Numbered from the stretch's first letter, positions 7,570 through 22,415 are shown. The stretch is DNA of 64,000 nt from Spirochaetaceae bacterium (GCA_002730875.1 PCBI01000005.1:901191-965190); one strand, 5' to 3'. The notes: generated by a model from the sequence alone, not told the origin. Numbers and translations are program-made.

Positions 7570-8631
7570 ATGGCTGCTACTCAGAACTTACACGTACGAT
7601 CCTTTGAAAAACTAAGACCCGCCACCGAGCTTCTGAAAGAGATTCCGGCCTCTCCGGAAATCAGCAAGCTGGTGAGCGAAAGCCGTGCCACTATCGCGCG
7701 TATCCTTTCCGGGGAAGATCCCCGATTCATGGTTATATCCGGCCCGTGTTCTATCCATGACGAAAAGGCGGCGTTCGAATACGCCGAGCGCTTCGCCGCA
7801 CTGAGCAAGGAAATCGATGATAAGATCTATCCTGTGATGCGAGTGTATTTCGAAAAACCCCGTACCACGGTGGGCTGGAAAGGACTCATCAACGATCCCC
7901 ATATGGACGGGTCTTACGACATAAACACCGGGCTGGAAAAGGCCAGACGCATTCTTTTGAAGATCCTGGAGATGGGACTTCCCACGGCCACGGAATTTCT
8001 GGACCCATTCGTTCCTCAGTACACCGGCGATCTGGTCTGTTGGGCCGCCATTGGCGCGCGCACTACCGAATCCCAGACTCACCGGGAAATGGCCAGCGGC
8101 CTTTCCATGCCCGTAGGTTTTAAGAACAATACGGATGGAAATACCCAGGTGGCCCTGGAAGCAGTGGAGTCGGCGGCCCATCCGCATAACTTCCTGGGAG
8201 TGGACGAAAACGGAGCGGTAAGCGTGGTTCGTACCACCGGAAATCCGCACTGCCACATTATCCTTCGCGGAGGCCGCAGCAAACCTAACTACGATGAAGC
8301 GAGTGTGGCCGAAGTCATGAAAGCCATGGAAAAATCTGGTTCCCGCAATCGGATCATTGTGGATTGTTCCCATGCGAATTCCGGCAAGCAGCACGGCAAG
8401 CAGGAGATTGCCCTTCAAGAGATTGTAGCTCAGCGACGCTCAGGAAACGATCAACTCGTAGGCATCATGCTGGAAAGCCATCTGTTCGAAGGAAATCAGA
8501 AGATCCCGGATGACCTGAAGGATCTGAAATACGGAGTCTCGGTCACCGATGCCTGTATTGATTTTCCCACTACCGAGCGCCTCTTGCGCGATGCGCATGC
8601 GAACTTGAGCCCCGTTGCGGCCGGGGTGTAG
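7570..8631 (+). CDS. aroG: 3-deoxy-7-phosphoheptulonate (DAHP) synthase, class I (AroF/G/H type)
   Basis: 'GPCSIHD', 'VYFEKPRTTVGWKGLINDP', 'IVDCSHANS'; 353 aa is typical class I-alpha length. Confidence 0.9.
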   Translation: MAATQNLHVRSFEKLRPATELLKEIPASPEISKLVSESRATIARILSGEDPRFMVISGPCSIHDEKAAFEYAERFAALSKEIDDKIYPVMRVYFEKPRTTVGWKGLINDPHMDGSYDINTGLEKARRILLKILEMGLPTATEFLDPFVPQYTGDLVCWAAIGARTTESQTHREMASGLSMPVGFKNNTDGNTQVALEAVESAAHPHNFLGVDENGAVSVVRTTGNPHCHIILRGGRSKPNYDEASVAEVMKAMEKSGSRNRIIVDCSHANSGKQHGKQEIALQEIVAQRRSGNDQLVGIMLESHLFEGNQKIPDDLKDLKYGVSVTDACIDFPTTERLLRDAHANLSPVAAGV

Positions 8632-10003: not shown

Positions 10004-11791
10004 TCATAGCCGGCGTTCGATGGGTGCTTGTTGGAGAAGTTCTGCAGCGGATTGCAGCGCATATACCTTGAGCGGCGCCTGTCGGCCACGTACGGACACC
10101 TCATGGCTGGAGAGCCCCTCTGTGCGGATTTCTGTCTGATCCAGCACATCCTCCGATACAACCAGATTGCAGTGTAATGCGCGGGTCATTCCTTCCAGAC
10201 GACTGGCGGTGTTCACCGGATCGCCTACAGCAGTTAAACCGATGGTGCGCCCATAACCCATTCGTCCTACAATCACATGACCGCAATGGATGCCAATACT
10301 CATCTGCAACGGTTCAATCAAGTCCATGGCCATACGATGATTCAAGGCCGCCATCTCCTGCTCCATGGATCCGGCCGCGCGAATTGCGGAAAGGCAGCCA
10401 GTGGAAAGGTCGCTGTGCAATCCAAACAGCGCCATGATTCCGTCACCAATGAACTTATCTACATGTCCTCCCTGCTGTTCGATGGCCCGACCCATCTGTT
10501 GAAAGTACTGGTTGAGCATGAAGACAATATCGTACGGCAGTTTGTTTTCGGAGAGTTGTGTGAATCCTCTGAGGTCTGCGAAAAGAATGGCGATGTCCGT
10601 GTCCCGGCCAAAGCTGAATTCGTCCGAACGAGTCAGAGTCATTTCCGAGGCATCCTGAATCCCCAGCAAAGGTTGAACTTCCACAGCCGCCAGTACGCTG
10701 GCCGAGCATGCCAGCCGTACGTTGGGCGCCGCGCGTATTCGGGAAAGGACCCTCTTTTCTTCTTCGGAGGGAGCGCTCAAATTTTCAGCCCCGTCAGATA
10801 CTCGGATCCTGCAGGTAGAGCAACGACCTCTTCCGCCACACACCGACGGATGGCGGACTCTAGCCAGAGCGCTGGCATTCAGAACCGTAATCCCCGGAGG
10901 CACCAGGATTTCGGTTCCATCGCTGTATCGGATCCGAATGGTCCTTCTTCTTCTGCTCACGGATTGAGTAATGAATCGGGCCGCCAGAGCAATGGCCAGA
11001 AACGCTGTGTAACCGGCGCTGGCCACATTCCCGAGTTGCAATGCCTCGCTCACCAGTTCCTCTTCGGTAGAGGCGCCGTGGGATTCCAGCAATGCCTGTT
11101 TGATCGCTGGATCCTGGATCTGGAGCATGACTTCTTTGCCGCCGGCTACAAAGCCCGCCACGGCCAGAACGGGCAGAGCAATGGCCGGACCAATCGCCCA
11201 TTTCCAGGCCGTAGAGTACCAGGACTTGAAGCGAAGCCAGTAATGGAGTCCCATGCATCCGTGACCCCAGGAAACCACAATCAGAAATACCATTACGGGA
11301 AAGATGAACGGATTGAACATGGAGTAGATCGAACTCGCATATTCGGGTCGGTATCCGAGAAGAACCGGCGTTAGATGGGAACCCAGATAGTGAGCGATTA
11401 GAGCATAGGGGATCAGAAATCCCAGAATTAACCTTAACCAGTAACCTCGACTGAATTGTAGTCGGGGAAGTCTTACCAGCTCATAAATGGCCGAGCATAC
11501 GTGCAATAGTGCGGCCAGAGGCACCACCCAGCCAACGCCAAACGGGTTCCATACCGGTTGCATCACTCTGAGGCCGGCATTCATCCAATCCAGAGAAAAC
11601 AAGCCCAGGGACGTGTTCAGCAGGTGCGTGAACAAATACGTCATCAGCACAAGTCCCGCATATAAGCGGATCCGTGAGTGTATCTCCTTCAGCCCGGATC
11701 CCTTGCTTTCGACCCTTTGTAGATGCATGAACCGGTTCTGAACCTGAACCCTGGGTTTGTCAACCCGCTGCTCGGCCGGGCGAGGGCACAA
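10004..11791 (-). CDS. Membrane-anchored class III adenylate/guanylate cyclase with 2Fe-2S ferredoxin-type domain
   Basis: About 6 N-terminal TM helices; 'CGGRGRCSTCRIRV...LACSASV' 2Fe-2S ferredoxin cysteine pattern; CYCc 'FADLRGFTQLSE', 'FIGDGIMALFG', 'GDPVNTASRLE'. Confidence 0.8.
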   Translation of the reverse strand: MCPRPAEQRVDKPRVQVQNRFMHLQRVESKGSGLKEIHSRIRLYAGLVLMTYLFTHLLNTSLGLFSLDWMNAGLRVMQPVWNPFGVGWVVPLAALLHVCSAIYELVRLPRLQFSRGYWLRLILGFLIPYALIAHYLGSHLTPVLLGYRPEYASSIYSMFNPFIFPVMVFLIVVSWGHGCMGLHYWLRFKSWYSTAWKWAIGPAIALPVLAVAGFVAGGKEVMLQIQDPAIKQALLESHGASTEEELVSEALQLGNVASAGYTAFLAIALAARFITQSVSRRRRTIRIRYSDGTEILVPPGITVLNASALARVRHPSVCGGRGRCSTCRIRVSDGAENLSAPSEEEKRVLSRIRAAPNVRLACSASVLAAVEVQPLLGIQDASEMTLTRSDEFSFGRDTDIAILFADLRGFTQLSENKLPYDIVFMLNQYFQQMGRAIEQQGGHVDKFIGDGIMALFGLHSDLSTGCLSAIRAAGSMEQEMAALNHRMAMDLIEPLQMSIGIHCGHVIVGRMGYGRTIGLTAVGDPVNTASRLEGMTRALHCNLVVSEDVLDQTEIRTEGLSSHEVSVRGRQAPLKVYALQSAAELLQQAPIERRL

Positions 11792-12939: not shown

Positions 12940-13314
12940 ATGGATTCCTTAATTCAAACAGCGCAAAACCTGGCCGGCGAATTTGCTCTCGCTCGCCCTT
13001 CCTTCACCGCCGGCGCCGTGGGAGCCGCGCTTAAATCGGCCAGCGGGAAGGTCTACACGGGTATTTGCGTAGAGCTTGCCTGCGGCATCGGCTTTTGCGC
13101 CGAACATGCTGCCATGGCGGAGATGCTAAAGATGCGGGAAACAGTGATCGATACAATCGTGGCCTGCAAGGTGGACGAAATCGTCGCTCCCTGCGGTCGA
13201 TGCCGGGAAATGATGTACCAGGTGGATGCTCGAAATAGGAGTGCGAAAATCATCCTGACTGAGAATCGGATCGTTACCCTGGATGAGCTTCTGCCGGAGC
13301 ACTGGAAGATATAG
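12940..13314 (+). CDS. cdd: Cytidine deaminase (homotetrameric type)
   Basis: 'CAEHAA' (H[AC]E) and 'PCGRCRE' zinc-ligand motifs; 124 aa. Confidence 0.85.
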   Translation: MDSLIQTAQNLAGEFALARPSFTAGAVGAALKSASGKVYTGICVELACGIGFCAEHAAMAEMLKMRETVIDTIVACKVDEIVAPCGRCREMMYQVDARNRSAKIILTENRIVTLDELLPEHWKI

Positions 13315-13521
13315 GCAATGCTGGCCTATCCCTGGAGCTGGGATTTCTAAGCGATAACGGAAACTACATACGGCTCGAAGATACCGGGCCAGGGCAGGAA
13401 TCTCCACAAGGGCCTTCCCGCGTTGCTCCGTGGTCGTATTGCAAGCTCGCCCGGCTTCCGCAAATAAAGTCAAAAACGACGAAGAGACCCGAGCCCGGAT
13501 CTCTCCGCCAGGAGTGAATGT

Positions 13522-14706
13522 TTATGGCAAGCTGCTTAGCTGTCGCAATCGTTCCCGCTTTTCGGGCGAGTCGTACGGATCATCGGGAAATTCCGAAGCC
13601 GCATACTTGCGGGTTTCATGGCGGGCCGCGGAATATGGAATAAGCATTCGCTTGGGTCGATCCTCGCGAACGTTCTTCAAGAATCGCTCAACCTCGGCAG
13701 GCGATTGGGCCAGAATCTCCGGCTGGATCACATCGGTATTCAGATAACCTCGAAGATCCTTCAGTTCAAAGGGACCGTCAATTTCTCGGTCATGGAGCAC
13801 CTTGCCGAAGAATTCAAGCTCGACGAACTGCAGACCTGGATCCAGTTTCGCATCTTCCCTGGCATAAGCGATAGGTTGCTCGTCGCCAAAAAGATTGGCT
13901 TCAATCGTATAGTTGCCGGGTTTCATTACTTCCAGTTCAGCCGAAATGAACAACGAACCATCTCTGTATGTTTCGTTGAACCTGCCTGTGAAGCGAGCCG
14001 GAGCTACCGGCGAAGAAAAGAAGTGCGTGGACAGAGAAAGCTCGGTGCTGCGGTTCCCGTCGAGCACCGCAAAGTTAATGGTTACGTGAATGTCCCCCCA
14101 ATCCTGCTTTTTGGGCGAAAAGCTGAAAGTATGGATGCCATCGCCTGCATTCGGGTCTCCATTTGTGCCATCATCAAACGGACCCAGAATCTCCTCCGGC
14201 GAGAATTTCTTTACGCCGGCGCGGCCTACGGTCTTTATTTCTACAAGTTTGATGGGCAACGGAGTAATGGAGCCCTTGCCGGTGCAGGCCAGGAATAGTT
14301 GCATCTTTTCGCCTTCCGTTACGCTGTGCGTAGCCGGCTGCAAAAGGCACTGATAGCCCGAGTCCTGCGGCTTTCCGTCTTGCATCACCGGCATGGTCTG
14401 CAGGGCCACAGGTATTTCCCTGTGACGAATCACATCCCTGTGTTCCGGCAGCAAGGGCCTGGAATCTGGCGGATACTTTGACCACTCTTTGTAATTTTTT
14501 ATTAGATCTTCTTTCTTAACGGAGCCATCGAATAACAATTCGGACTGATTTCCCAGAGGACCTGGAGCCCGACTGAGTATTCGACTGTCTTGACTGTCGC
14601 TTTCTTCCAGCTCGTACCCAACGTGCACGTTTTCTGTTTGTAACAGTATGATGGCGGTGGCTACAAGACCGATGATTACTGCGATGATTACATAGTATTT
14701 CTTCAT
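13522..14706 (-). CDS. Hypothetical membrane-anchored or secreted protein
   Basis: 'MKKYYVIIAVIIGLVATAIILL' anchor; 394 aa with no recognised catalytic motif; own intergenic region separate from the upstream lipase terminator. Confidence 0.55.
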   Translation of the reverse strand: MKKYYVIIAVIIGLVATAIILLQTENVHVGYELEESDSQDSRILSRAPGPLGNQSELLFDGSVKKEDLIKNYKEWSKYPPDSRPLLPEHRDVIRHREIPVALQTMPVMQDGKPQDSGYQCLLQPATHSVTEGEKMQLFLACTGKGSITPLPIKLVEIKTVGRAGVKKFSPEEILGPFDDGTNGDPNAGDGIHTFSFSPKKQDWGDIHVTINFAVLDGNRSTELSLSTHFFSSPVAPARFTGRFNETYRDGSLFISAELEVMKPGNYTIEANLFGDEQPIAYAREDAKLDPGLQFVELEFFGKVLHDREIDGPFELKDLRGYLNTDVIQPEILAQSPAEVERFLKNVREDRPKRMLIPYSAARHETRKYAASEFPDDPYDSPEKRERLRQLSSLP

Positions 14707-14741
14707 GGTGAATCTCCAATGCCGATAATCGTCGGCTTAGA

Positions 14742-14770
14742 ATGAAAAATGGCGGGGGATAATCCCCCGC
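14742..14770 (-). terminator. Rho-independent terminator candidate after the lipase gene
   Basis: Hairpin GCGGGGGAT-AAT-CCCCCGC at 14752-14770, followed on the minus strand by a U-tract (plus-strand 'gaaaaat' at 14741-14751). Confidence 0.4.
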
Positions 14771-14781
14771 GCATGCCAGGC

Positions 14782-15645
14782 CTAATCCAACAGGATGTAG
14801 GTGGGGTCGTTATGAGGTTCAGTGTGACGCATGGGAATTCCACCGTTGGGAACAGAAGGATGCATCACGTGTCCATCCCAGGGGGTAATCAGCTGCTTTC
14901 GCTGCCAGAAGCACCAGTTACACTGACGGATCTTTTCGCCCATGCACTGGCTAAAGGCGCCAGTGGTTCGATAACCGCAGGCGCTGTGGAAGGCCACCAG
15001 GGTATCGTCCTCCCCAGGAAGGAATGGCTCGGCAATCCAGATGGATTTATTCGCGGCTACGTGGTAGAACACCGTACCATTTGTTCGGTTATGATCGAAC
15101 AGTCCCCGGGCATTGCTTGTAACCAGGGCTTGAATCGCATCGTGGTTTTCCACCAGGTTATCCGTAAGTTGATTATCCTGCAGACCGAACACAAACTTCA
15201 AGATTTCGATGGCGGTGTCGCCCAGGTTGGCGATTTCCGATCCGCCCTCAGCCGAAACAATCTGAGTTGTGTACAGAACGTTGTAGAGTCCTGTGCGATT
15301 GTACATTGCCAGGGTTCCCGCTGTAGTGAATCCACCCAGGGATTCAGCCACGATTCGGCAGGTCTGTCCCTGATCCTTTCGGCAGTACTTGTTCAGTAGC
15401 TCGAGCAGGCGAACGCTGCCGGCTGTGGGAACGGCCACAAAGGGATTTCTGCGTCCATCGTATCCCGCAAGTGTGTAGTCATCCACCGGAAGGTTTTGCC
15501 AGTAGCCATTACAGGAACCGGTTGTATCCTGGCATTCTTCGTTGGATTCAATCAAGCTCATCCCGTGGACGAAGATTACCTTTTCCGCATGCACTCCGCT
15601 GACGCTCATGCAAATGGCGGCCAGCATTAGTATTATCTTTTTCAT
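14782..15645 (-). CDS. Secreted alpha/beta hydrolase, lipase family
   Basis: Signal peptide 'MKKIILMLAAICMSVSGVHA'; 'VIFVHGM' oxyanion region; 'AESLGG' nucleophile elbow; RBS GGAGAAA before the ATG. Confidence 0.75.
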   Translation of the reverse strand: MKKIILMLAAICMSVSGVHAEKVIFVHGMSLIESNEECQDTTGSCNGYWQNLPVDDYTLAGYDGRRNPFVAVPTAGSVRLLELLNKYCRKDQGQTCRIVAESLGGFTTAGTLAMYNRTGLYNVLYTTQIVSAEGGSEIANLGDTAIEILKFVFGLQDNQLTDNLVENHDAIQALVTSNARGLFDHNRTNGTVFYHVAANKSIWIAEPFLPGEDDTLVAFHSACGYRTTGAFSQCMGEKIRQCNWCFWQRKQLITPWDGHVMHPSVPNGGIPMRHTEPHNDPTYILLD

Positions 15646-15697
15646 TTTCTCCTCTCATCGTTTGCCCCGAACTTCGTCGGGCGTTTCCGAGAGCATT

Positions 15698-15712
15698 TCA
15701 AGAATCGTGCCA
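15698..15712 (-). promoter_or_regulatory. Sigma-54 (-24/-12)-like promoter candidate upstream of the lipase gene
   Basis: Minus-strand TGGCACGATTCTTGA matches TGGCACG-N4-TTGCW with exact spacing, except -12 'GA' instead of 'GC'; about 50 nt upstream of the lipase ATG and immediately downstream of the bEBP gene. Confidence 0.3.
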
Positions 15713-15970
15713 CCCCGGCAATGCCGCGGTTTTGGCCCCGGCCGCCCGTGCTGGACAGATTGGCGCTGCGGAAGGAAAAACAGCCAGATAGGCACCGTTT
15801 CCGCCAGGCAGGGCGCACAGGGCCATTAAGGCCCATTAAGGCGCTTTTACTGGCGATTGATTTCTGATGGTCGGGACCGGATTCTGCGAGTTCTCAGGTC
15901 GTTTCAGCCTGGGTAGCAGATCAGAATTAACGAAATGGCTGCCTCGAAAGAGTGAATGGTAGACGAACCG

Positions 15971-16020
15971 GCCAGATCTGGCCGGTGGAAAATGGCCAGG
16001 TGGCCGGATCTGGCCACCTG
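15971..16020 (-). terminator. Two adjacent perfect palindromes, CCGGCCAGATCTGGCCGG and CAGGTGGCCGGATCTGGCCACCTG, just 3' of the bEBP gene; candidate terminator and/or protein-binding site
   Basis: Exact inverted repeats read directly; on the minus strand the second palindrome is followed by GCCAUUUUCC. Confidence 0.35.
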
Positions 16021-16028
16021 TTTCGGTC

Positions 16029-18494
16029 TCAGTTGTCCAAACCCAGTTCTTTCATTCTATTTCTCAGGGTACTTCGTTTGAGTCCCAGGATTTCTGCGGC
16101 TCTGGTCTTGTTTCCTCCGGATAAGCTCAGGGCCCTCTTGACCATGGCCCGACCGTAATCTCGAATTTCCCGGTCATAGGGAATGTTTACGCTGTCCGGT
16201 CCGGTAGATTCCCCGGAATCCCGGACCATGCCCTCATCTTTGCGGCTATCAGTCCGGGAACCGATGCCCCCTGGTCGAGGCAATACCCGGCTTCTATCTG
16301 AATCAGAGAGTAGATGCAAAAACTGCGAAGGGGCCAGGCTTTCACTTTCGTTTAGAACGATGGTCCGTATTAGCAGGTTTTCCAGTTCGCGAATGTTTCC
16401 GGGCCAGGAGTAGCTCATTAAAGCCCGTAGAGAGTCTGCCGGGATTTCAGGTGGTGAGATCTTATGCTCGCTGCAGATTCGGTCTACGAGATAATGCACG
16501 AGACCGGGGATATCTTCTGGTCTTTCCCGCAGAGGAGGCAACTGCAAAGTGAATACATTTATTCGGTAGAGCAGATCCTGCCTGAAGCTGCCTTCTTTTA
16601 TCATGCTATCCAGATCGCGGTTCGTGGCGAACAAGAATCGACAGCGCGCTTCCACAGTGCCTTCGGCTCCCAGGGGACTGAAAACCCTCTCTTGAAGGAC
16701 TCGCAATAGTTTGGCCTGCATGTTCAGCGGCATTTCGCCGATCTCATCCAGAAAAAGCACTCCGCCGGCCGCTTCGGCAATGCGGCCGGTGCGCTCCGAA
16801 CGTGCATCGGTAAAGGCCCCGCGTCTATGCCCAAACAACTCCGATTCCCACAGAGTTTCCGGAATGGCCGCACAGTTCACGGCTACAAACGGGCCGCCGG
16901 AAGAGCTACCGATAAGCCGGGCCACCAGCTCCTTTCCTGTACCCGTTTCTCCGTGAATCAGCACGGATTGGTTTACCGGTTGCAGCTTGCGAATCTGGTC
17001 GATCACTCGTCGCATGGCGACGCTGCGAATTACCATGTTCCGACCGCCGCCAGTGGGTATTAGATCTGGCTCGGTGCGAACTACCCTTTCCAGTTCTTCT
17101 AAATGAACGGAAAAATCAGGTAATTCCTTTCTGGCCGTGCGAAGCATGTCAGTCATATCTTCAAATGCCGCCCGCAGCTTCAGGATTTCATCGCCTTCCT
17201 GCCTGCCATCGCTTTTCTGGCCGCGTAGCTTGCCCATGTCTTCCAGCAGCCGATGTATTGGTCTAATAATACTTCCGCGAAAGAGCACAGGAAAAAGAAG
17301 TAGCGTTAACCCGGAAGCTGCCAGAAGCAGAACGGCATGGATCATGGCAGAATCGTGCAATTCCTGGCGAAATGAAGAGTACGGAAATCCCACAAGATAA
17401 GAGCGACCTGCATGGTTGAATGTCGCGCCAGCAAAGGCTTTTCTGTCGTAGAGGCCATACTGGATCCAGGGGTCTGAATGCCCTGGCTCCAAAGCCTTAC
17501 TTTCGAGGCGCTTTTCCTGCGAACCGTCTTGATCGAAGTGGCTCTCTTCCAACATTTCATCAAACTGAACAGGCTGCAAAAACAGAATGTCGGAGTTTGC
17601 TTCCCCTCTGGCCAGCGCCAGCTTCCCGATCAGGATGGATTTTTGTCTGAAGGATTCCATGAACCATCGATCGCTCTGAACCGATGCGAAACTCAGCAAT
17701 CCCAGGACCGTGACGAAGGTAATCCCTATTAATCGATGCATGAAGCCGGTACGTGCGGTGGCCGCGGAGGAATAGACTACTACATAGATACCGAAAATAA
17801 GCAGCATGACGGCATTCATTGTGAATGCCAGGCCTGCATTATCCAGAAGGCTGGCCCGACTCATCAGGTATACGGTGTTCACTCCCAGTTCCACGGATGT
17901 TACGAAGACCAGGAATACGGAAGCACGAAGGCGGGCATCGCTCTGCCACGCCGACTTCAGGCTGGCCAGACTACTCGACTGCGTTGCTTTTCGATGCTGC
18001 TGTATGAAATGAAGGGCCGATCGCAGGGCTACCAGGATACTCCCCAGGAAACAAAGAAAGCTTACAAGGGGGACCCAGAGTGAGCTGTAGGAGGATCCGT
18101 AGGTGTGGACTCCAAAGACGGGTCCGAAATCCGTGCCTGCGCGGACCAGATACTCCATGGTGGCAGCCGTGGCGGCCAAACCGCTAATGTAGAGCACTGG
18201 TTTTCGCTCTCTTTCAAAAGGAGAATCCGGAAAGACATAGGCGAATTGTAGTCTGGCCACTCCGGCGAAGGCAATGATGCAGGCGAAGTACCAGGAATAA
18301 CCGGCATACGGGCTGTTCCAGCAGTAACCTACAAAATAGCTTAGATTGAATGCGGTCAAACAGCTGAAGTAGATAGCGAGCCACAGGCTGCTAAGCTCGC
18401 CCCTGGACCGATACCAGAGGTAAGCGCTAATGGCGGAGGTGAGAAGTAGCGGCCCCAGGCGTCCTATGGCAAAATAGGTGAGCTGAATCTCCAC
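16029..18494 (-). CDS. Sigma-54-dependent transcriptional activator (bEBP) with N-terminal 7TMR-DISM-type 7-TM domain and C-terminal Fis-type HTH
   Basis: Seven N-terminal TM helices; AAA+ 'VLIHGETGTGKELVA'; 'GAFTDA' variant of GAFTGA; 'FRQDLLYRINVFTLQLPPLRERPEDI'; HTH 'GNKTRAAEILGLKRSTLRNRMKEL'. GTG start overlaps the upstream stop (TAGTG). Confidence 0.85.
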   Translation of the reverse strand: MEIQLTYFAIGRLGPLLLTSAISAYLWYRSRGELSSLWLAIYFSCLTAFNLSYFVGYCWNSPYAGYSWYFACIIAFAGVARLQFAYVFPDSPFERERKPVLYISGLAATAATMEYLVRAGTDFGPVFGVHTYGSSYSSLWVPLVSFLCFLGSILVALRSALHFIQQHRKATQSSSLASLKSAWQSDARLRASVFLVFVTSVELGVNTVYLMSRASLLDNAGLAFTMNAVMLLIFGIYVVVYSSAATARTGFMHRLIGITFVTVLGLLSFASVQSDRWFMESFRQKSILIGKLALARGEANSDILFLQPVQFDEMLEESHFDQDGSQEKRLESKALEPGHSDPWIQYGLYDRKAFAGATFNHAGRSYLVGFPYSSFRQELHDSAMIHAVLLLAASGLTLLLFPVLFRGSIIRPIHRLLEDMGKLRGQKSDGRQEGDEILKLRAAFEDMTDMLRTARKELPDFSVHLEELERVVRTEPDLIPTGGGRNMVIRSVAMRRVIDQIRKLQPVNQSVLIHGETGTGKELVARLIGSSSGGPFVAVNCAAIPETLWESELFGHRRGAFTDARSERTGRIAEAAGGVLFLDEIGEMPLNMQAKLLRVLQERVFSPLGAEGTVEARCRFLFATNRDLDSMIKEGSFRQDLLYRINVFTLQLPPLRERPEDIPGLVHYLVDRICSEHKISPPEIPADSLRALMSYSWPGNIRELENLLIRTIVLNESESLAPSQFLHLLSDSDRSRVLPRPGGIGSRTDSRKDEGMVRDSGESTGPDSVNIPYDREIRDYGRAMVKRALSLSGGNKTRAAEILGLKRSTLRNRMKELGLDN

Positions 18495-21265
18495 TAGATG
18501 TCTCCTACGGATGCTACCATATCAGTGTCGTCGTCCGATGCCGTTCCCGCGGCCGCCTCAAGCGCTGCACGAAGCGCCGGAAGGGAGGGTTCACCAGGAT
18601 TCGCATTCTCCAGCTCCTGGATAAGTTCCCTGGCGCGGCGGAAGTCACGGGAAATAAGATAAAGACGGACCAGATGGCGGAGGTTATCGCTTCTTTCCGG
18701 GGCCCGTAGCAGCAAACGCTCGCCCAGGTCAATGGCTTCTGTGATACGGTCTCCCTTGCGACAGGCCCTGGACGCAGAAAGCAGGAACTCGGTGTCTTCC
18801 GGGATCAGAGACACTCGCCGCATGGACAGAATGGCCGCCAGGGACCAATCCTCGGCCGCGATGGCTTCCTTAAGTTGGCCTGTAACCGTTCGGTAATCCG
18901 GAGCCTGTCCATCAAACCCAATGGACATCAGGGAAAGATCGTCAGTGATTTCTCCTGTGGCCTGAAGGATTTCGTAGATGCGGGAAAGGTCTCCCTGGCT
19001 CCTTTCGACTATGTCAAGAAATGGTTTTTCGCTGGTATTCATTTGCGGACCTGACTCCGTCTCCACGATGATGTCATCACGACCATCAGATCCCAGAATC
19101 AATAATTGCTCCGGAAGTAATCTGAAAACCTGAACGCGTAGTCTTCGCGCATCGGCCGGGGTACCCAGCTTCATCAATTGATCGCTGATATCCAGGAACC
19201 GGGCTTTTCCATCCTCATAGATGACCGGAGCCGGATGTTCGGCGCTGATACAGTAAACTACCCCTGTGGCTTCATCAATCAAACCCAGCACAAAGCTTAT
19301 GAGCATGCTGCCGTCGAAAGCGCGAAAGACCGAGTTCATTTCTTCAAAGGATGTTTTCAGCCATCGCTCCGGCGAATACCTCTGAAGCGCCGAGGCCGAC
19401 CGACTACGGTGCAGAATAGCCTTGAAAAGACTGCCCAGAACCAGTATTCCACCGCCCCCCTGAATGGATTTACCCATGGCATCGGCATTTAGAAAGACCG
19501 TGTAAGTCCTCTGTCCGAGCTGAAAGCGATCGGCCACGCAGTAATCACCGCCTATCTCGGATTTCCATTTTTTGAAGGCGAATTCCTTTTTCTGTTTTAA
19601 AAGAAACTCTACATGAACCAGCCCATTGGCCGTTTCATTGTGTACAAGGGGCGTAAGTAGCAGGGACGTAAGAAAATAATCCCCATCCTGCCTGGATTTG
19701 GCCTCATGCAGTGCATCATTGGTTTCGCTCAATTCCCTGGTTCTCGCTTCGACCATTTGTTCCAGGTTCTCCGCGTATTGTTGTAATCTCTGTCTTGCAT
19801 CCTGGACGCTACGTACCATGGAATTGAAGGATCGAGCCAGAAATCCGATCTCATCCTCAACCTGCACCGGTACATGAACGGTAAGGTCCCCTTCGTTTAC
19901 CTGTTTAACTCCGGAGAGCAGGGAATTCAGCGGTCGTATCAAGCTACTGGAAAAGAAAAACGGAAATAGCACCAGTAGCAAAAAGGTCAATAGCAGCACG
20001 AGTGCACTGTATTCCAGGACGCTGTCATGTACTTCCCGGCGAAAAACTTCATATGGGAAACCGAATTCAATCCAGCCCGTATTGGTAGGAGCGGAGTAGA
20101 AGACAATTCTCCTGTCTTCCGCGATTCGGTAATCCCTTTGAAGCTGACTTCTGGTTTTTCCCAGGATCTCCTCCCTGGCCCGGGTGAGGGCTTCCTCTTC
20201 GCTTACTTGCTTTTCCCCTATGATCTTTAGGGCCCGTTTCTCGATAAGATAGTCACTCCGGTTTATATCGCTGTCCTTCAGCGCTTCTGCGCTCCATTCC
20301 GACCCGGTAACTTCCAGATAGGTGTCGGGATACCGCCGGTCGGCGGGCAGTGACGCAAGATAAATAGCTCCTGGCGGAAGGGTGGGTACATCCCGGGTGA
20401 GCATGGACTGGATCGCGGCCCGGTTCTTCTGATCAAAGGAGTCTTCAATTCGCTGAATGCTTCTGGATCCCAGCAGGGAAGTGGCGACCAGCAGAGTCAC
20501 GAGAGAGATACCCACCAGTCGAACCATGATACTTGTATTCTCTCGGGAATGGTTGATGTAGACAATGAAGTAGAAGAAATACACAAACATGAGCCCCAGA
20601 TTGAAGATCTGATTAATCGTAAGGGCAGATACGAAATCCGTAACCGTGGAGATCATGTACAGAATATTGACGATTAATTCAGCCAGTGCGATCAACAGGA
20701 AGGAGCGTACGGCCACGATGTTTCTGTGAGATGGTCGAAACAAAGCCTGGAAAAAGCTTTGCGAGTTTGCTTTGCCGAGAGCTCGAATCTGCCGGAGAAA
20801 AATAATCATCACACCAAAGAACATGATCATGGTAACCAGAGGAACATACGGAGAGGCATAGAGCGATCCGTAGATATGGTTATCGAAAAAGAATCTGTAG
20901 GGCGTTTGCTCGGCAACGTACGAGTATTCCGCAATGGCAAACAGGGAGATTAGCAAAGAAAGGATGAGTACCACTTTGGATTCCCGGGGGAACCGGTTTG
21001 CCGGCATATGATACGCAAACTGTAGCTTAAAAACCAGAGCAAGTGTGATGCAGCAAGCAATATAGAAGCCATATCTCCCTTCCGGTACATCCAATGCAAA
21101 GGCAAGGAGATATCCAATATTGAAGAGCGAAAGGAATCCAAAGAAACCGCCCAGATAAAGCGCCGGCCGCGAATTTCGCACAAAGAGTAGCATATGTCCG
21201 GCCAGAAGGATTGTAAGGATTGTTGGCGTTAGCCGATCGAAGAAATTTGCATTTAATAGGATCAT
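18494..21265 (-). CDS. 7TMR-DISM 7-TM receptor / HAMP / PP2C (SpoIIE/RsbU-type) serine phosphatase with C-terminal TPR repeats
   Basis: Seven TM helices; HAMP-like linker; PP2C motifs 'NADAMGKSIQGGGG' (GDxxGKG-like, as in RsbU) and 'ILGSDGRDD'; TPR-like C-terminus. Confidence 0.85.
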   Translation of the reverse strand: MILLNANFFDRLTPTILTILLAGHMLLFVRNSRPALYLGGFFGFLSLFNIGYLLAFALDVPEGRYGFYIACCITLALVFKLQFAYHMPANRFPRESKVVLILSLLISLFAIAEYSYVAEQTPYRFFFDNHIYGSLYASPYVPLVTMIMFFGVMIIFLRQIRALGKANSQSFFQALFRPSHRNIVAVRSFLLIALAELIVNILYMISTVTDFVSALTINQIFNLGLMFVYFFYFIVYINHSRENTSIMVRLVGISLVTLLVATSLLGSRSIQRIEDSFDQKNRAAIQSMLTRDVPTLPPGAIYLASLPADRRYPDTYLEVTGSEWSAEALKDSDINRSDYLIEKRALKIIGEKQVSEEEALTRAREEILGKTRSQLQRDYRIAEDRRIVFYSAPTNTGWIEFGFPYEVFRREVHDSVLEYSALVLLLTFLLLVLFPFFFSSSLIRPLNSLLSGVKQVNEGDLTVHVPVQVEDEIGFLARSFNSMVRSVQDARQRLQQYAENLEQMVEARTRELSETNDALHEAKSRQDGDYFLTSLLLTPLVHNETANGLVHVEFLLKQKKEFAFKKWKSEIGGDYCVADRFQLGQRTYTVFLNADAMGKSIQGGGGILVLGSLFKAILHRSRSASALQRYSPERWLKTSFEEMNSVFRAFDGSMLISFVLGLIDEATGVVYCISAEHPAPVIYEDGKARFLDISDQLMKLGTPADARRLRVQVFRLLPEQLLILGSDGRDDIIVETESGPQMNTSEKPFLDIVERSQGDLSRIYEILQATGEITDDLSLMSIGFDGQAPDYRTVTGQLKEAIAAEDWSLAAILSMRRVSLIPEDTEFLLSASRACRKGDRITEAIDLGERLLLRAPERSDNLRHLVRLYLISRDFRRARELIQELENANPGEPSLPALRAALEAAAGTASDDDTDMVASVGDI

Positions 21266-21324
21266 GGCGTCTAAAGTGGAATGAATTCTCCTCGGAATTT
21301 GTTTTGAATCAATCCTTTTTCGGA

Positions 21325-21341
21325 TGCAGAAAACGTGCCAG
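21325..21341 (-). promoter_or_regulatory. Sigma-54 promoter candidate upstream of the 7TMR-DISM PP2C / bEBP operon
   Basis: Minus-strand CTGGCACGTTTTCTGCA = TGGCACG-N4-CTGCA (-24 GG and -12 GC, correct spacing); about 60 nt upstream of the ATG at 21265. Confidence 0.5.
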
Positions 21342-21626
21342 GAATCAGAACGGCAGCCAGGACTCCTGCTTTGAATTCAGCCCCGGGAGCATTTAGCAGG
21401 AATACCGGGCAAGGCTTTCCGCTAAATCGATTGGCCAATGGATGGATTCTTCAGAAGCAATTCTGCATACGGGCGCGGGCAAAAAGCTATCCTGAATACC
21501 GCCGCGGGAAAAAAGCCAGAAATTACAAAGTGGCTTAATGAGTAGTTAGTGGGCTACCCGTGCCTGTGACACTTGCTAACTTGACTGCTCTTCAGGAGTA
21601 GCAAAGAATGCGTCGAATCCCCGGAA

Positions 21627-22415
21627 CTACATAGCCAGAACAATGGCAACGTTGGCCGCCGAATGAACCAGAAATGTCCAGAGGAGTGAATCGGTCTGAA
21701 TACGAAGGGCCGAAAGCGTAATCCCACATAGCGTATAGTAAAGAGCCAATTCTGGATCCAGGGTTGTGGGAACGTGGGCTGCCGTGAATATTGCCGCCGA
21801 AACAAAATGACCAATCCAGTGCGGGGCCCGACCTATACGCGAAGGAAGCCAGTGCCTGAAAGCAATCTCTTCGAAGAGCGGAGCGATTCCTATACCAATC
21901 AGCCAAATTGTAAGATGGAACCCATCCATACGGCCGGAACTTACCGGTACATCCTGGTTGATGCTGGCCAGAAGCATGGTCAGGGCCGTGAAGGCCAGAA
22001 TCGAATGAAGCAAACTGGAAGGGCGTGTATCCAGGCGGAAGAAGAGCTTTCGCTCCAGGTTGCTTAGAAGATAGAGCGAGAATGGGGCCAGCGCGGCCAG
22101 AAGAAGGGGCTGAAACACATAGAACCGGAGTAGCTCCTTGTTAGGATAGAGCGTCGTATGAACAATCAACAGAACGCACCATGCCAGCATACCGGCAATT
22201 CCCAGATAGGCCGGAAGTCTGGCGGCTGGCCCGGAAAGAAGACTCCGCAATTCCAGGGCCGTGGCGCGCCTGGTCGCGTCGGATTCCCGGCCCAGTTTAT
22301 CATAGTGGTCGTTTAGGCTGGTTCTTTCTTCACTGGTCAGTAGACGCCGAAGCTCGACGTTGTTACGCACCATCCGCCAAAGAAGCGCTGCTCTGTATCT
22401 GTCCCTTTTTGCCAT
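21627..22415 (-). CDS. CPBP family intramembrane metalloprotease (CAAX protease / Abi family)
   Basis: 'EEIAFRHWL' (EExxxR), 'FxxxH' and 'HSAANVA' motifs; probable start MAKRD at 22415, to avoid overlap with divergent asd. Confidence 0.7.
   Translation of the reverse strand: MAKRDRYRAALLWRMVRNNVELRRLLTSEERTSLNDHYDKLGRESDATRRATALELRSLLSGPAARLPAYLGIAGMLAWCVLLIVHTTLYPNKELLRFYVFQPLLLAALAPFSLYLLSNLERKLFFRLDTRPSSLLHSILAFTALTMLLASINQDVPVSSGRMDGFHLTIWLIGIGIAPLFEEIAFRHWLPSRIGRAPHWIGHFVSAAIFTAAHVPTTLDPELALYYTLCGITLSALRIQTDSLLWTFLVHSAANVAIVLAM

Follow-up and report, generated by a model that had tools for sequence, protein, structure and literature searches.

A probable sigma-54-dependent operon for a lipase-like protein and a DUF4785-type partner beside a membrane-integral activator gene in a Spirochaetaceae bacterium

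We analysed a 64,000-nucleotide stretch of DNA from a Spirochaetaceae bacterium (GCA_002730875.1, PCBI01000005.1:901191-965190; hereafter "the window", with positions counted from its first letter), concentrating on lip, a gene for a predicted exported lipase-like protein, on the gene that follows it, which encodes a 394-amino-acid protein here called the partner, and on the gene upstream of it, which encodes a protein of the bacterial enhancer-binding class (bEBP). Our analysis favours the reading that lip and the partner gene make up an operon that depends on sigma-54 and has a one-component activator of its own, and we regard this reading as a whole as probable. Its first component, a sigma-54 promoter through which lip is a target of the adjacent bEBP, is well supported by comparative evidence and, in our judgement, highly likely.

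Results

A sigma-54-type element upstream of lip and its orthologues

A preliminary description of this region, made from the sequence alone, had placed a sigma-54-type promoter upstream of lip, and the GG, the ten-nucleotide spacer and the GA are present on the minus strand at 15712..15697 as described (TGGCACGATTCTTGAA; Table 1). The -24 half and the spacing of this GG-N10-GA are perfect, and A replaces C at -12; measured against the longer consensus TGGCACG-N4-TTGCW, the site is again perfect at TGGCACG, in its spacing and at TTG, with the same change at the -12 C. The element is correctly oriented and lies 67 nt from the lip ATG. Dinucleotide shuffles of the 200 nt upstream of lip equalled its score (11 of 12) in 2/2000 cases, and the window, searched on both strands (128 kb of strand), contains three sites scoring at least 11/12, two of which are upstream of genes in the cluster. 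A promoter scan found no sigma-70-like promoter in the gap between lip and the bEBP gene (15646..16028). Transcription is predicted to start near 15686, and the resulting leader would end in the ribosome-binding site (RBS) GGAGAAA (15652..15646) of the preliminary description, which abuts the ATG at 15645. A small hairpin in this leader was also seen in 9/11 orthologous leaders, with z-scores of -0.4 to -4 that are statistically not secure; when 13000..22000 was scanned with Rfam, neither the leader nor the stretch between lip and the partner gene matched a known RNA element.

We compared this region with related loci. The lip protein family comprises 37 clusters at 90% identity, mostly from Leptospirales, and the comparison set consisted of 26 genomic and 11 metagenomic loci (designated L001 and so on), among which we define a close clade whose lip proteins are 57-74% identical to that of the window. 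The -24/-12 element was found with 17/17 lip copies of the close clade, and also with the distant, sigma-54-linked copies in L026 and L037. Across these copies the element reads GG-N10-G(C/T/A); its invariant positions are GG, A at +3 and TG at -14/-13, and the flanks cannot be aligned. The distance from element to ATG is 59-68 nt in L003-L007, L026-L029 and L031, and greater, 75-165 nt, in L001, L002, L008 and L032. Each copy's element is individually significant, with between 0 and 27 of 2000 shuffles reaching its score (p ~0.0005-0.013). As a control, Turneriella-type lip copies (40% identity), which have no adjacent bEBP gene, also have no -24/-12 element. We conclude that the element upstream of lip is very probably a real sigma-54 promoter.

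The comparison of orthologous intergenic regions, a check that the preliminary description had proposed, also bears on the unusual -12 position. C is present there (as TTGC or CTGC) in ten copies, those of L003-L007, L026, L029, L031, L032 and L037. By contrast, among the nearest relatives of the window the residue is T (L001a, L001b, L002a, L008 and L027) or, in L002b (site TGGCACGGGTCTTGAA), A within the same GA as in the window. C at -12 is found in 96% of sigma-54 promoters and holds basal transcription low (PMC4551910). Because the non-C sites (7/17, reading TTGT or TTGA) are all confined to one clade, set against this general prevalence of C, they point to a maintained clade variant rather than to decay. 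The preliminary description had taken the deviating -12 element as a weakness of its prediction, whereas a non-C residue proves to be conserved in the clade made up of the window, L001, L002, L008 and L027. By analogy with work in E. coli, the promoter would be expected to survive A in place of C at -12, with a looser repressed closed complex and leakier basal expression.

Two of the loci with C at -12, L026 (9100..9433) and L037 (1250..1565), carry distant lip-partner pairs (31-35% identity) with canonical sigma-54 promoters; their enhancers are different inverted repeats, and in L026 the bEBP is different too. Comparison of the loci suggests that sigma-54 was recruited to the lip-partner pair repeatedly or anciently.

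Three tandem dyads upstream of the promoter

Between the activator gene and lip we found three tandem 16-bp dyads that the preliminary description does not mention, a predicted enhancer (upstream activating sequence, UAS) that begins 13 nt past the activator stop codon, with about 280 bp between it and the -24 element downstream. The dyads are spaced 18 + 14 bp from start to start, and the outer two, both palindromes, are the sole matches with 0-1 mismatch to GGCCAGATCTGGCC within the window. The same 18 + 14 bp layout occurs, once per locus, in L001, L002, L007, L027, L031 and L032, and a 17 + 14 layout occurs in L003; L029 matches at the two outer dyads. Examples from other loci are CGGCAAGATCTTGCCG in L008 and TGACAAAAAATTGTCA in L003. 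The dyads always lie upstream of the sigma-54 element, and their layout is conserved in GC-rich as well as in AT-rich lineages. In the window, a 256-nt spacer separates the promoter from the enhancer; it is unique sequence in which we found no repeats or mobile-element copies.

We considered whether the dyads are merely the terminator of the bEBP gene. The palindrome past the bEBP stop codon has a tail of only four T residues and was not called by the terminator scan, and the dyads accompany the lip promoter also in L027, which has a divergent activator gene, and in L001 and L002, in which none was found within 10 kb. Because the dyads track the promoter and not the bEBP gene in these loci, we rejected the terminator explanation and interpret them as an enhancer. 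Three dyads would fit three bEBP dimers, that is, one AAA+ hexamer, and the predicted enhancer would link the lip promoter to the activator.

These observations bear on two alternatives for the promoter. The first is that the -24/-12 match has decayed and is non-functional, with lip read through from an operon of the upstream phosphatase (PP2C) gene and the bEBP gene, or from an unrecognised sigma-70 promoter. The prevalence of C at -12 among known sigma-54 promoters favours this explanation, as do the shared strand of lip and the bEBP gene and the uncalled palindrome with its four-T tail between them. However, TGGCAC-N5-TTG followed by T or A at -12 is kept in L001a, L001b, L002a, L002b, L008 and L027, which is unexpected for a dead site, the three-dyad enhancer is retained, and the gap holds no sigma-70-like promoter; we consider this alternative quite unlikely. 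The second is that the whole resemblance is due to chance, arising from a fortuitous TGGCAC motif. Searches with a loose sigma-54 pattern allowing two mismatches do match the shuffled level (37 matches, as against 30 +/- 6 in shuffled sequence). By contrast, sites scoring at least 11/12 are as rare as noted above, the element is conserved in position among orthologues, and the enhancer co-occurs with it, so that the comparative data effectively refute chance and we give it next to no weight.

The activator and its genomic neighbourhood

The predicted activator is a one-component bEBP in which about seven transmembrane (TM) segments, a loop, an eighth TM segment and a HAMP-like region precede the sigma-54 AAA+ domain and an HTH_8 domain. 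Its translation contains GETGTGKE (Walker A), FLDEIGE (Walker B) and GAFTDA, one change from GAFTGA. The part before the AAA+ domain comprises about eight hydrophobic segments and a weak HAMP, the latter being all that Pfam detects there at E-values up to 10, and a homologue search with the seven-TM (7TM) sensor part yielded 8000 word candidates and 0 significant matches. The same 7TM activator is encoded directly upstream of lip in L003-L008, L028, L029, L031 and L032, and divergently in L027. We found no sigma-54-like site upstream of the orthologous bEBP genes. The preliminary description had placed the lipase gene immediately downstream of the bEBP gene; a genuine sigma-54 activator is indeed encoded upstream, but the gap is 383 nt. 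Its suggestion of host sensing is unlikely to hold, because the exact proteins occur on a 1.05-Mb marine (Tara Oceans) metagenome contig.

Directly upstream of the activator gene, and overlapping it by ATGA at 18494, is a gene for a PP2C/SpoIIE-TPR phosphatase (18494..21265, minus strand). The two products share an N-terminal sensor of about 470 amino acids, consisting of 7TM, loop, TM8 and HAMP (27% identity, E = 1e-37), the 7TM part of which is matched by no Pfam model; in L005 and L028 the PP2C gene is instead placed downstream of the lip pair. A second good sigma-54-like element, TGGCACGTTTTCTGCA (21325..21340, minus strand), lies 60 nt upstream of the PP2C ATG, with no three-dyad enhancer nearby. 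The third site scoring at least 11/12, TGGCACGGCTTTCGCT (7675..7690, minus strand), is antisense within a DAHP-synthase-like open reading frame (ORF; 7570..8631, plus strand) and is probably a chance match. Elsewhere in the window, a 595-amino-acid protein (10004..11791, minus strand) combines N-terminal TM segments with 2Fe-2S ferredoxin and adenylate/guanylate cyclase domains, an unusual, redox-linked cyclase architecture.

lip and the partner gene as a probable two-gene unit

The hairpin and U-tract that the preliminary description reported downstream of lip are where it placed them, and the G+C-rich stem and U-tract have the form of an intrinsic terminator. The hairpin has an 8-bp stem (7 G-C pairs) and a 3-nt loop, with five U starting 2 nt past the stem; it folds at -18.4 kcal/mol (z = -2.7) and is also listed by the terminator scan. 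A strong hairpin, usually with a T-tract, is found 6-30 nt past the lip stop codon in nearly all spirochaete loci. Because its position is conserved despite unrelated sequence, the inter-gene terminator is, on this comparison, a selected feature.

The preliminary description had concluded that lip is a monocistronic unit, and the related loci argue otherwise. The partner gene follows lip in 30/32 loci with downstream sequence, and in two Polyangiaceae contigs they overlap or have 11 nt between them. Only 43-46 nt separate the pair in L003, L005, L010, L012 and L013; the hairpin takes up this space and the T-tract leads into the RBS, and in L005 GGGGGATG follows the T-tract directly. Because gaps of this size leave no room for a promoter, transcription in these loci has to pass the hairpin to reach the second gene. 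L002 has a third lip copy, which starts 38 nt past the partner stop codon and has no promoter-like site of its own. In the window, the sole strong terminator past the second gene in the terminator scan is the one at 13510..13477. We consider it reasonably likely, from these gene arrangements, that lip and the partner gene form a two-gene operon with a leaky internal terminator or attenuator that sets the enzyme above the partner.

The alternative closest to the preliminary description is a strictly monocistronic, sigma-54-dependent lip with a fully efficient terminator, the 394-amino-acid gene being transcribed independently. The quality of the hairpin and T-tract as an intrinsic terminator and its conserved position are consistent with this, as are the 45 nt that the window has from the T-tract to the ATG that follows. 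However, we found no sigma-54 site and no convincing sigma-70 site in 14706..14745, and the loci with no promoter room, the overlapping or nearly abutting genes of Polyangiaceae, the persistent pairing and the third lip copy of L002 all count against it. We consider independent transcription of the partner gene improbable, and favour the two-gene operon.

In each of the closest relatives of the window, L002 (6470..10870) and L001 (8772..13150), a single partner gene is accompanied by three lip paralogues in tandem, in the order lip-lip-partner-lip. In both loci sigma-54 elements precede the first two lip copies, and neither has an activator gene within 10 kb.

The products of lip and the partner gene

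The ORF, the signal peptide and the AESLGG motif of the preliminary description are all present in lip. AESLGG occupies residues 100-105, with Ser102 as the nucleophile, and H27 G28 forms an HG oxyanion motif. In an alignment of 28 family members, H27-G28 and S102-x-G104 are invariant, as is S131-A-x-G-G; D214, H220, H259 and H274 each occur in at least 90% of the sequences, and there are eight or more conserved Cys residues. Asp214 and His259 are candidate catalytic residues.

An exhaustive profile search recovered 254 representative relatives of lip. Ten remote relatives matched no hydrolase family in Pfam and gave no bridge to a named family, and a phmmer search of lip against the PDB returned nothing meaningful. 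The family profile has weak matches, in which the oxyanion, elbow and G-S-x-x-A blocks are aligned, to Legionella PlaB (E = 0.017) and to Proteus lipases; H27-G28 and S102/G104 of lip align with the HG and HSTGG motifs of PlaB. Foldseek matches of the structural model to the family I.2 lipases 1qge, 1tah, 1cvl and 2es4_B had E-values of 5e-6 to 5e-4, with template-modelling scores (TM-scores) of ~0.35. From these motifs and the model, the description of lip as an exported, lipase-like serine hydrolase is justified, and a lipolytic function is plausible. "Lipase", the term used in the preliminary description, thus stands as far as alpha/beta-hydrolase motifs and lipase structural neighbours go, but family models do not support it. 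A Cys-rich insert, C223-x10-C234-x6-C241-x2-C244, lies between the candidate Asp214 and His259 in a low-confidence part of the model; it is retained within the close clade, and its Cys residues could pair as disulfides or bind a metal.

In the partner, an N-terminal membrane anchor (residues 2-24) is joined by a disordered linker (25-59) to tandem beta-sandwich domains (predicted local distance difference test score, pLDDT, 88), and the best structural match of the protein is the Legionella DUF4785 protein NttD/lpg0956. Two motifs are nearly invariant among partners, W-x3-YPPDSRPL (residues 75-85) and FFSSPVAPARFTG (229-241), and they may form an interaction surface. We considered whether the partner is an alpha-helical lipase-specific foldase (Lif), that is, a Lipase_chap homologue, and rejected this: the two are not homologous, and it is in topology and gene position that the partner mimics Lif. 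A helper role for the partner is plausible.

Table 1. Coordinates of the features of the lip locus in the window.
Feature	Position	Strand	Details
Activator, 821-aa one-component bEBP	16029..18494	minus	Sigma54_activat (E = 1e-61), AAA_lid_14, HTH_8 (E = 4e-10)
Predicted enhancer (UAS), three tandem 16-bp dyads	15969..16016	minus	YGNCMA-N4-TKGNCR; conserved layout
Dyad 1, TGGCCAGATCCGGCCA	16016..16001	minus
Dyad 2, TGGCCATTTTCCACCG	15998..15983	minus	degenerate right half
Dyad 3, CGGCCAGATCTGGCCG	15984..15969	minus
Sigma-54-type promoter, TGGCACGATTCTTGAA	15712..15697	minus	GG at 15711/15710, G at 15699, A at 15698 (consensus C)
Predicted 5' leader, ~41 nt	15646..15686	minus	RBS GGAG at 15652..15649; small hairpin CCCGA/TCGGG
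lip, predicted exported 287-aa alpha/beta-hydrolase, lipase-like	14782..15645	minus	signal peptide MKKIILMLAAICMSVSGVHA, followed by EK
Terminator-like element between the genes	14745..14770	minus	hairpin GCGGGGGATTATCCCCCGC at 14770..14752, CA, TTTTT at 14749..14745
Partner gene, 394 aa	13522..14706	minus	RBS GGAG at 14717..14714; DUF4785/NttD-type
Strong terminal terminator of the two-gene unit	13477..13510	minus	15-bp stem, then TTTTT

Discussion

Our preferred reading suggests the following course of events. The membrane-embedded bEBP would bind the three dyads beside its own stop codon as three dimers, forming one hexamer; once the 7TM/HAMP sensor is triggered, the AAA+ ring would loop over about 280 bp and remodel the closed complex of sigma-54 holoenzyme on TGGCACGATTCTTGAA, with transcription starting near 15686. 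The first product would be an exported, disulfide-rich, lipase-like serine hydrolase. Most transcripts would probably stop at the hairpin and U-tract (14770..14745), while a fraction would read into the partner gene and end at 13510..13477; this partial termination would yield more enzyme than partner.

Several observations weigh against parts of this reading. The window contains no rpoN gene; we infer that the organism has one from the bEBP itself and from the presence of rpoN in all Leptospira (PMC4758666). The promoter departs from consensus at the very position that is the C in nearly all known sigma-54 promoters. The orthologous loci have a common ancestry, and counts among them are not independent events. 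The enhancer-promoter distance in the window is the longest observed, as compared with 75-170 bp in orthologues, and the first dyad could double as a terminator hairpin for the bEBP gene. At the level of the operon, the inter-gene hairpin is strong (-18 kcal/mol, five U) and read-through could be very low, and a promoter inside lip might conceivably serve the second gene. As to the enzyme, Pfam and NCBIfam scans of the lip protein gave no match, and its model is of moderate quality (pLDDT 74, below 50 around Asp214).

A more elaborate picture can be offered only tentatively. The 7TM/HAMP activator, unable to leave the membrane and bound as three dimers to an enhancer beside its own gene, might hold the locus there and form a self-contained, membrane-tethered circuit that drives a new lipase-like family together with a DUF4785-type helper, the latter replacing a foldase non-homologously; the non-C residue at -12 and the leaky terminator might then set the basal level and the stoichiometry.

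For a sigma-54 activator of a membrane-integral type, distinct from the EbpA/EbpB described for Leptospirales, the locus would provide a concrete regulon consisting of an enhancer, a promoter and two target genes. The pairing of an unannotated lipase-like hydrolase family with an obligate DUF4785-like partner would offer a first functional handle on DUF4785/NttD proteins. A series of sigma-54 promoters in which the -12 C has been systematically replaced in one clade should also lend itself to work on the part that the -12 element plays in balancing basal against activated transcription.

The closest known systems are the lipase-foldase operons of Pseudomonas, which are controlled by sigma-54 and NtrC-family activators (CbrB, LipR) bound to a UAS: LipQ/LipR-sigma54 in P. 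alcaligenes and CbrA/CbrB-sigma54 in P. aeruginosa control lipA-lif, and putative sigma-54 promoters lie upstream of lipAB in Burkholderia glumae (PMC12134079). As in lipA-lif, the gene for a predicted exported lipase-type enzyme is here preceded by a -24/-12 promoter with a predicted UAS for a bEBP and followed by the gene for a periplasmic partner with an N-terminal membrane anchor; these very family I.2 lipases of Pseudomonas and Burkholderia are, moreover, the structures nearest to lip. Unlike the soluble REC-domain response regulators of Pseudomonas, the activator in the window crosses the membrane several times (7TM + HAMP) and is a one-component protein. The products differ as well, lip belonging to an unannotated family and the partner being a DUF4785-like beta-sandwich protein as opposed to an alpha-helical Lif. 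Finally, the organism is a spirochaete and not a proteobacterium, there is a conserved terminator between enzyme gene and partner gene, and the -12 element is non-consensus.

Within the same order, Leptospira has a comparable arrangement of sigma-54, a dedicated bEBP and a -24/-12 promoter in the EbpA/EbpB-RpoN system, the targets of which include envelope and lipoprotein genes important outside the host (PMC12655853, PMC4758666). EbpA (GAF-GAF) and EbpB (REC) are both soluble, and saprophytic Leptospira are stated to have EbpA only (PMC12655853, PMC4758666). Unlike these two proteins, the activator in the window represents a third, membrane-integral type, and two saprophytes, L. sarikeiensis (L003) and L. 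ognonensis (L007), encode this type beside lip.

With respect to the enzyme, lip shares with family I.1/I.2 lipases and PlaB the alpha/beta-hydrolase fold, the HG oxyanion motif, the x-[HDE]-S-x-G-G elbow, a G-S-x-x-A block past the next strand and the D-x-L-V Asp motif. Unlike those proteins, the lip family has A, N, S or V in place of G as the first elbow residue, and a Cys-rich insert (C-x10-C-x6-C-x2-C) separates the candidate Asp from the candidate His; the sequences are only marginally similar, and the low TM-scores come from a model of medium quality. The Legionella pneumophila protein NttD (lpg0956, PDB 4kh9) is a soluble DUF4785 substrate of type II secretion of unknown function (PMC6617341); the partner differs from it in having an N-terminal anchor that looks uncleaved and a disordered linker, and in being strictly paired with lip. 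The logic of sigma-54 and a bEBP driving a lipase operon is thus already known from Pseudomonas, and what our analysis would add is a membrane-integral one-component activator, a three-dyad enhancer, unannotated product families, a conserved attenuating terminator and a clade-wide variant of the -12 element.

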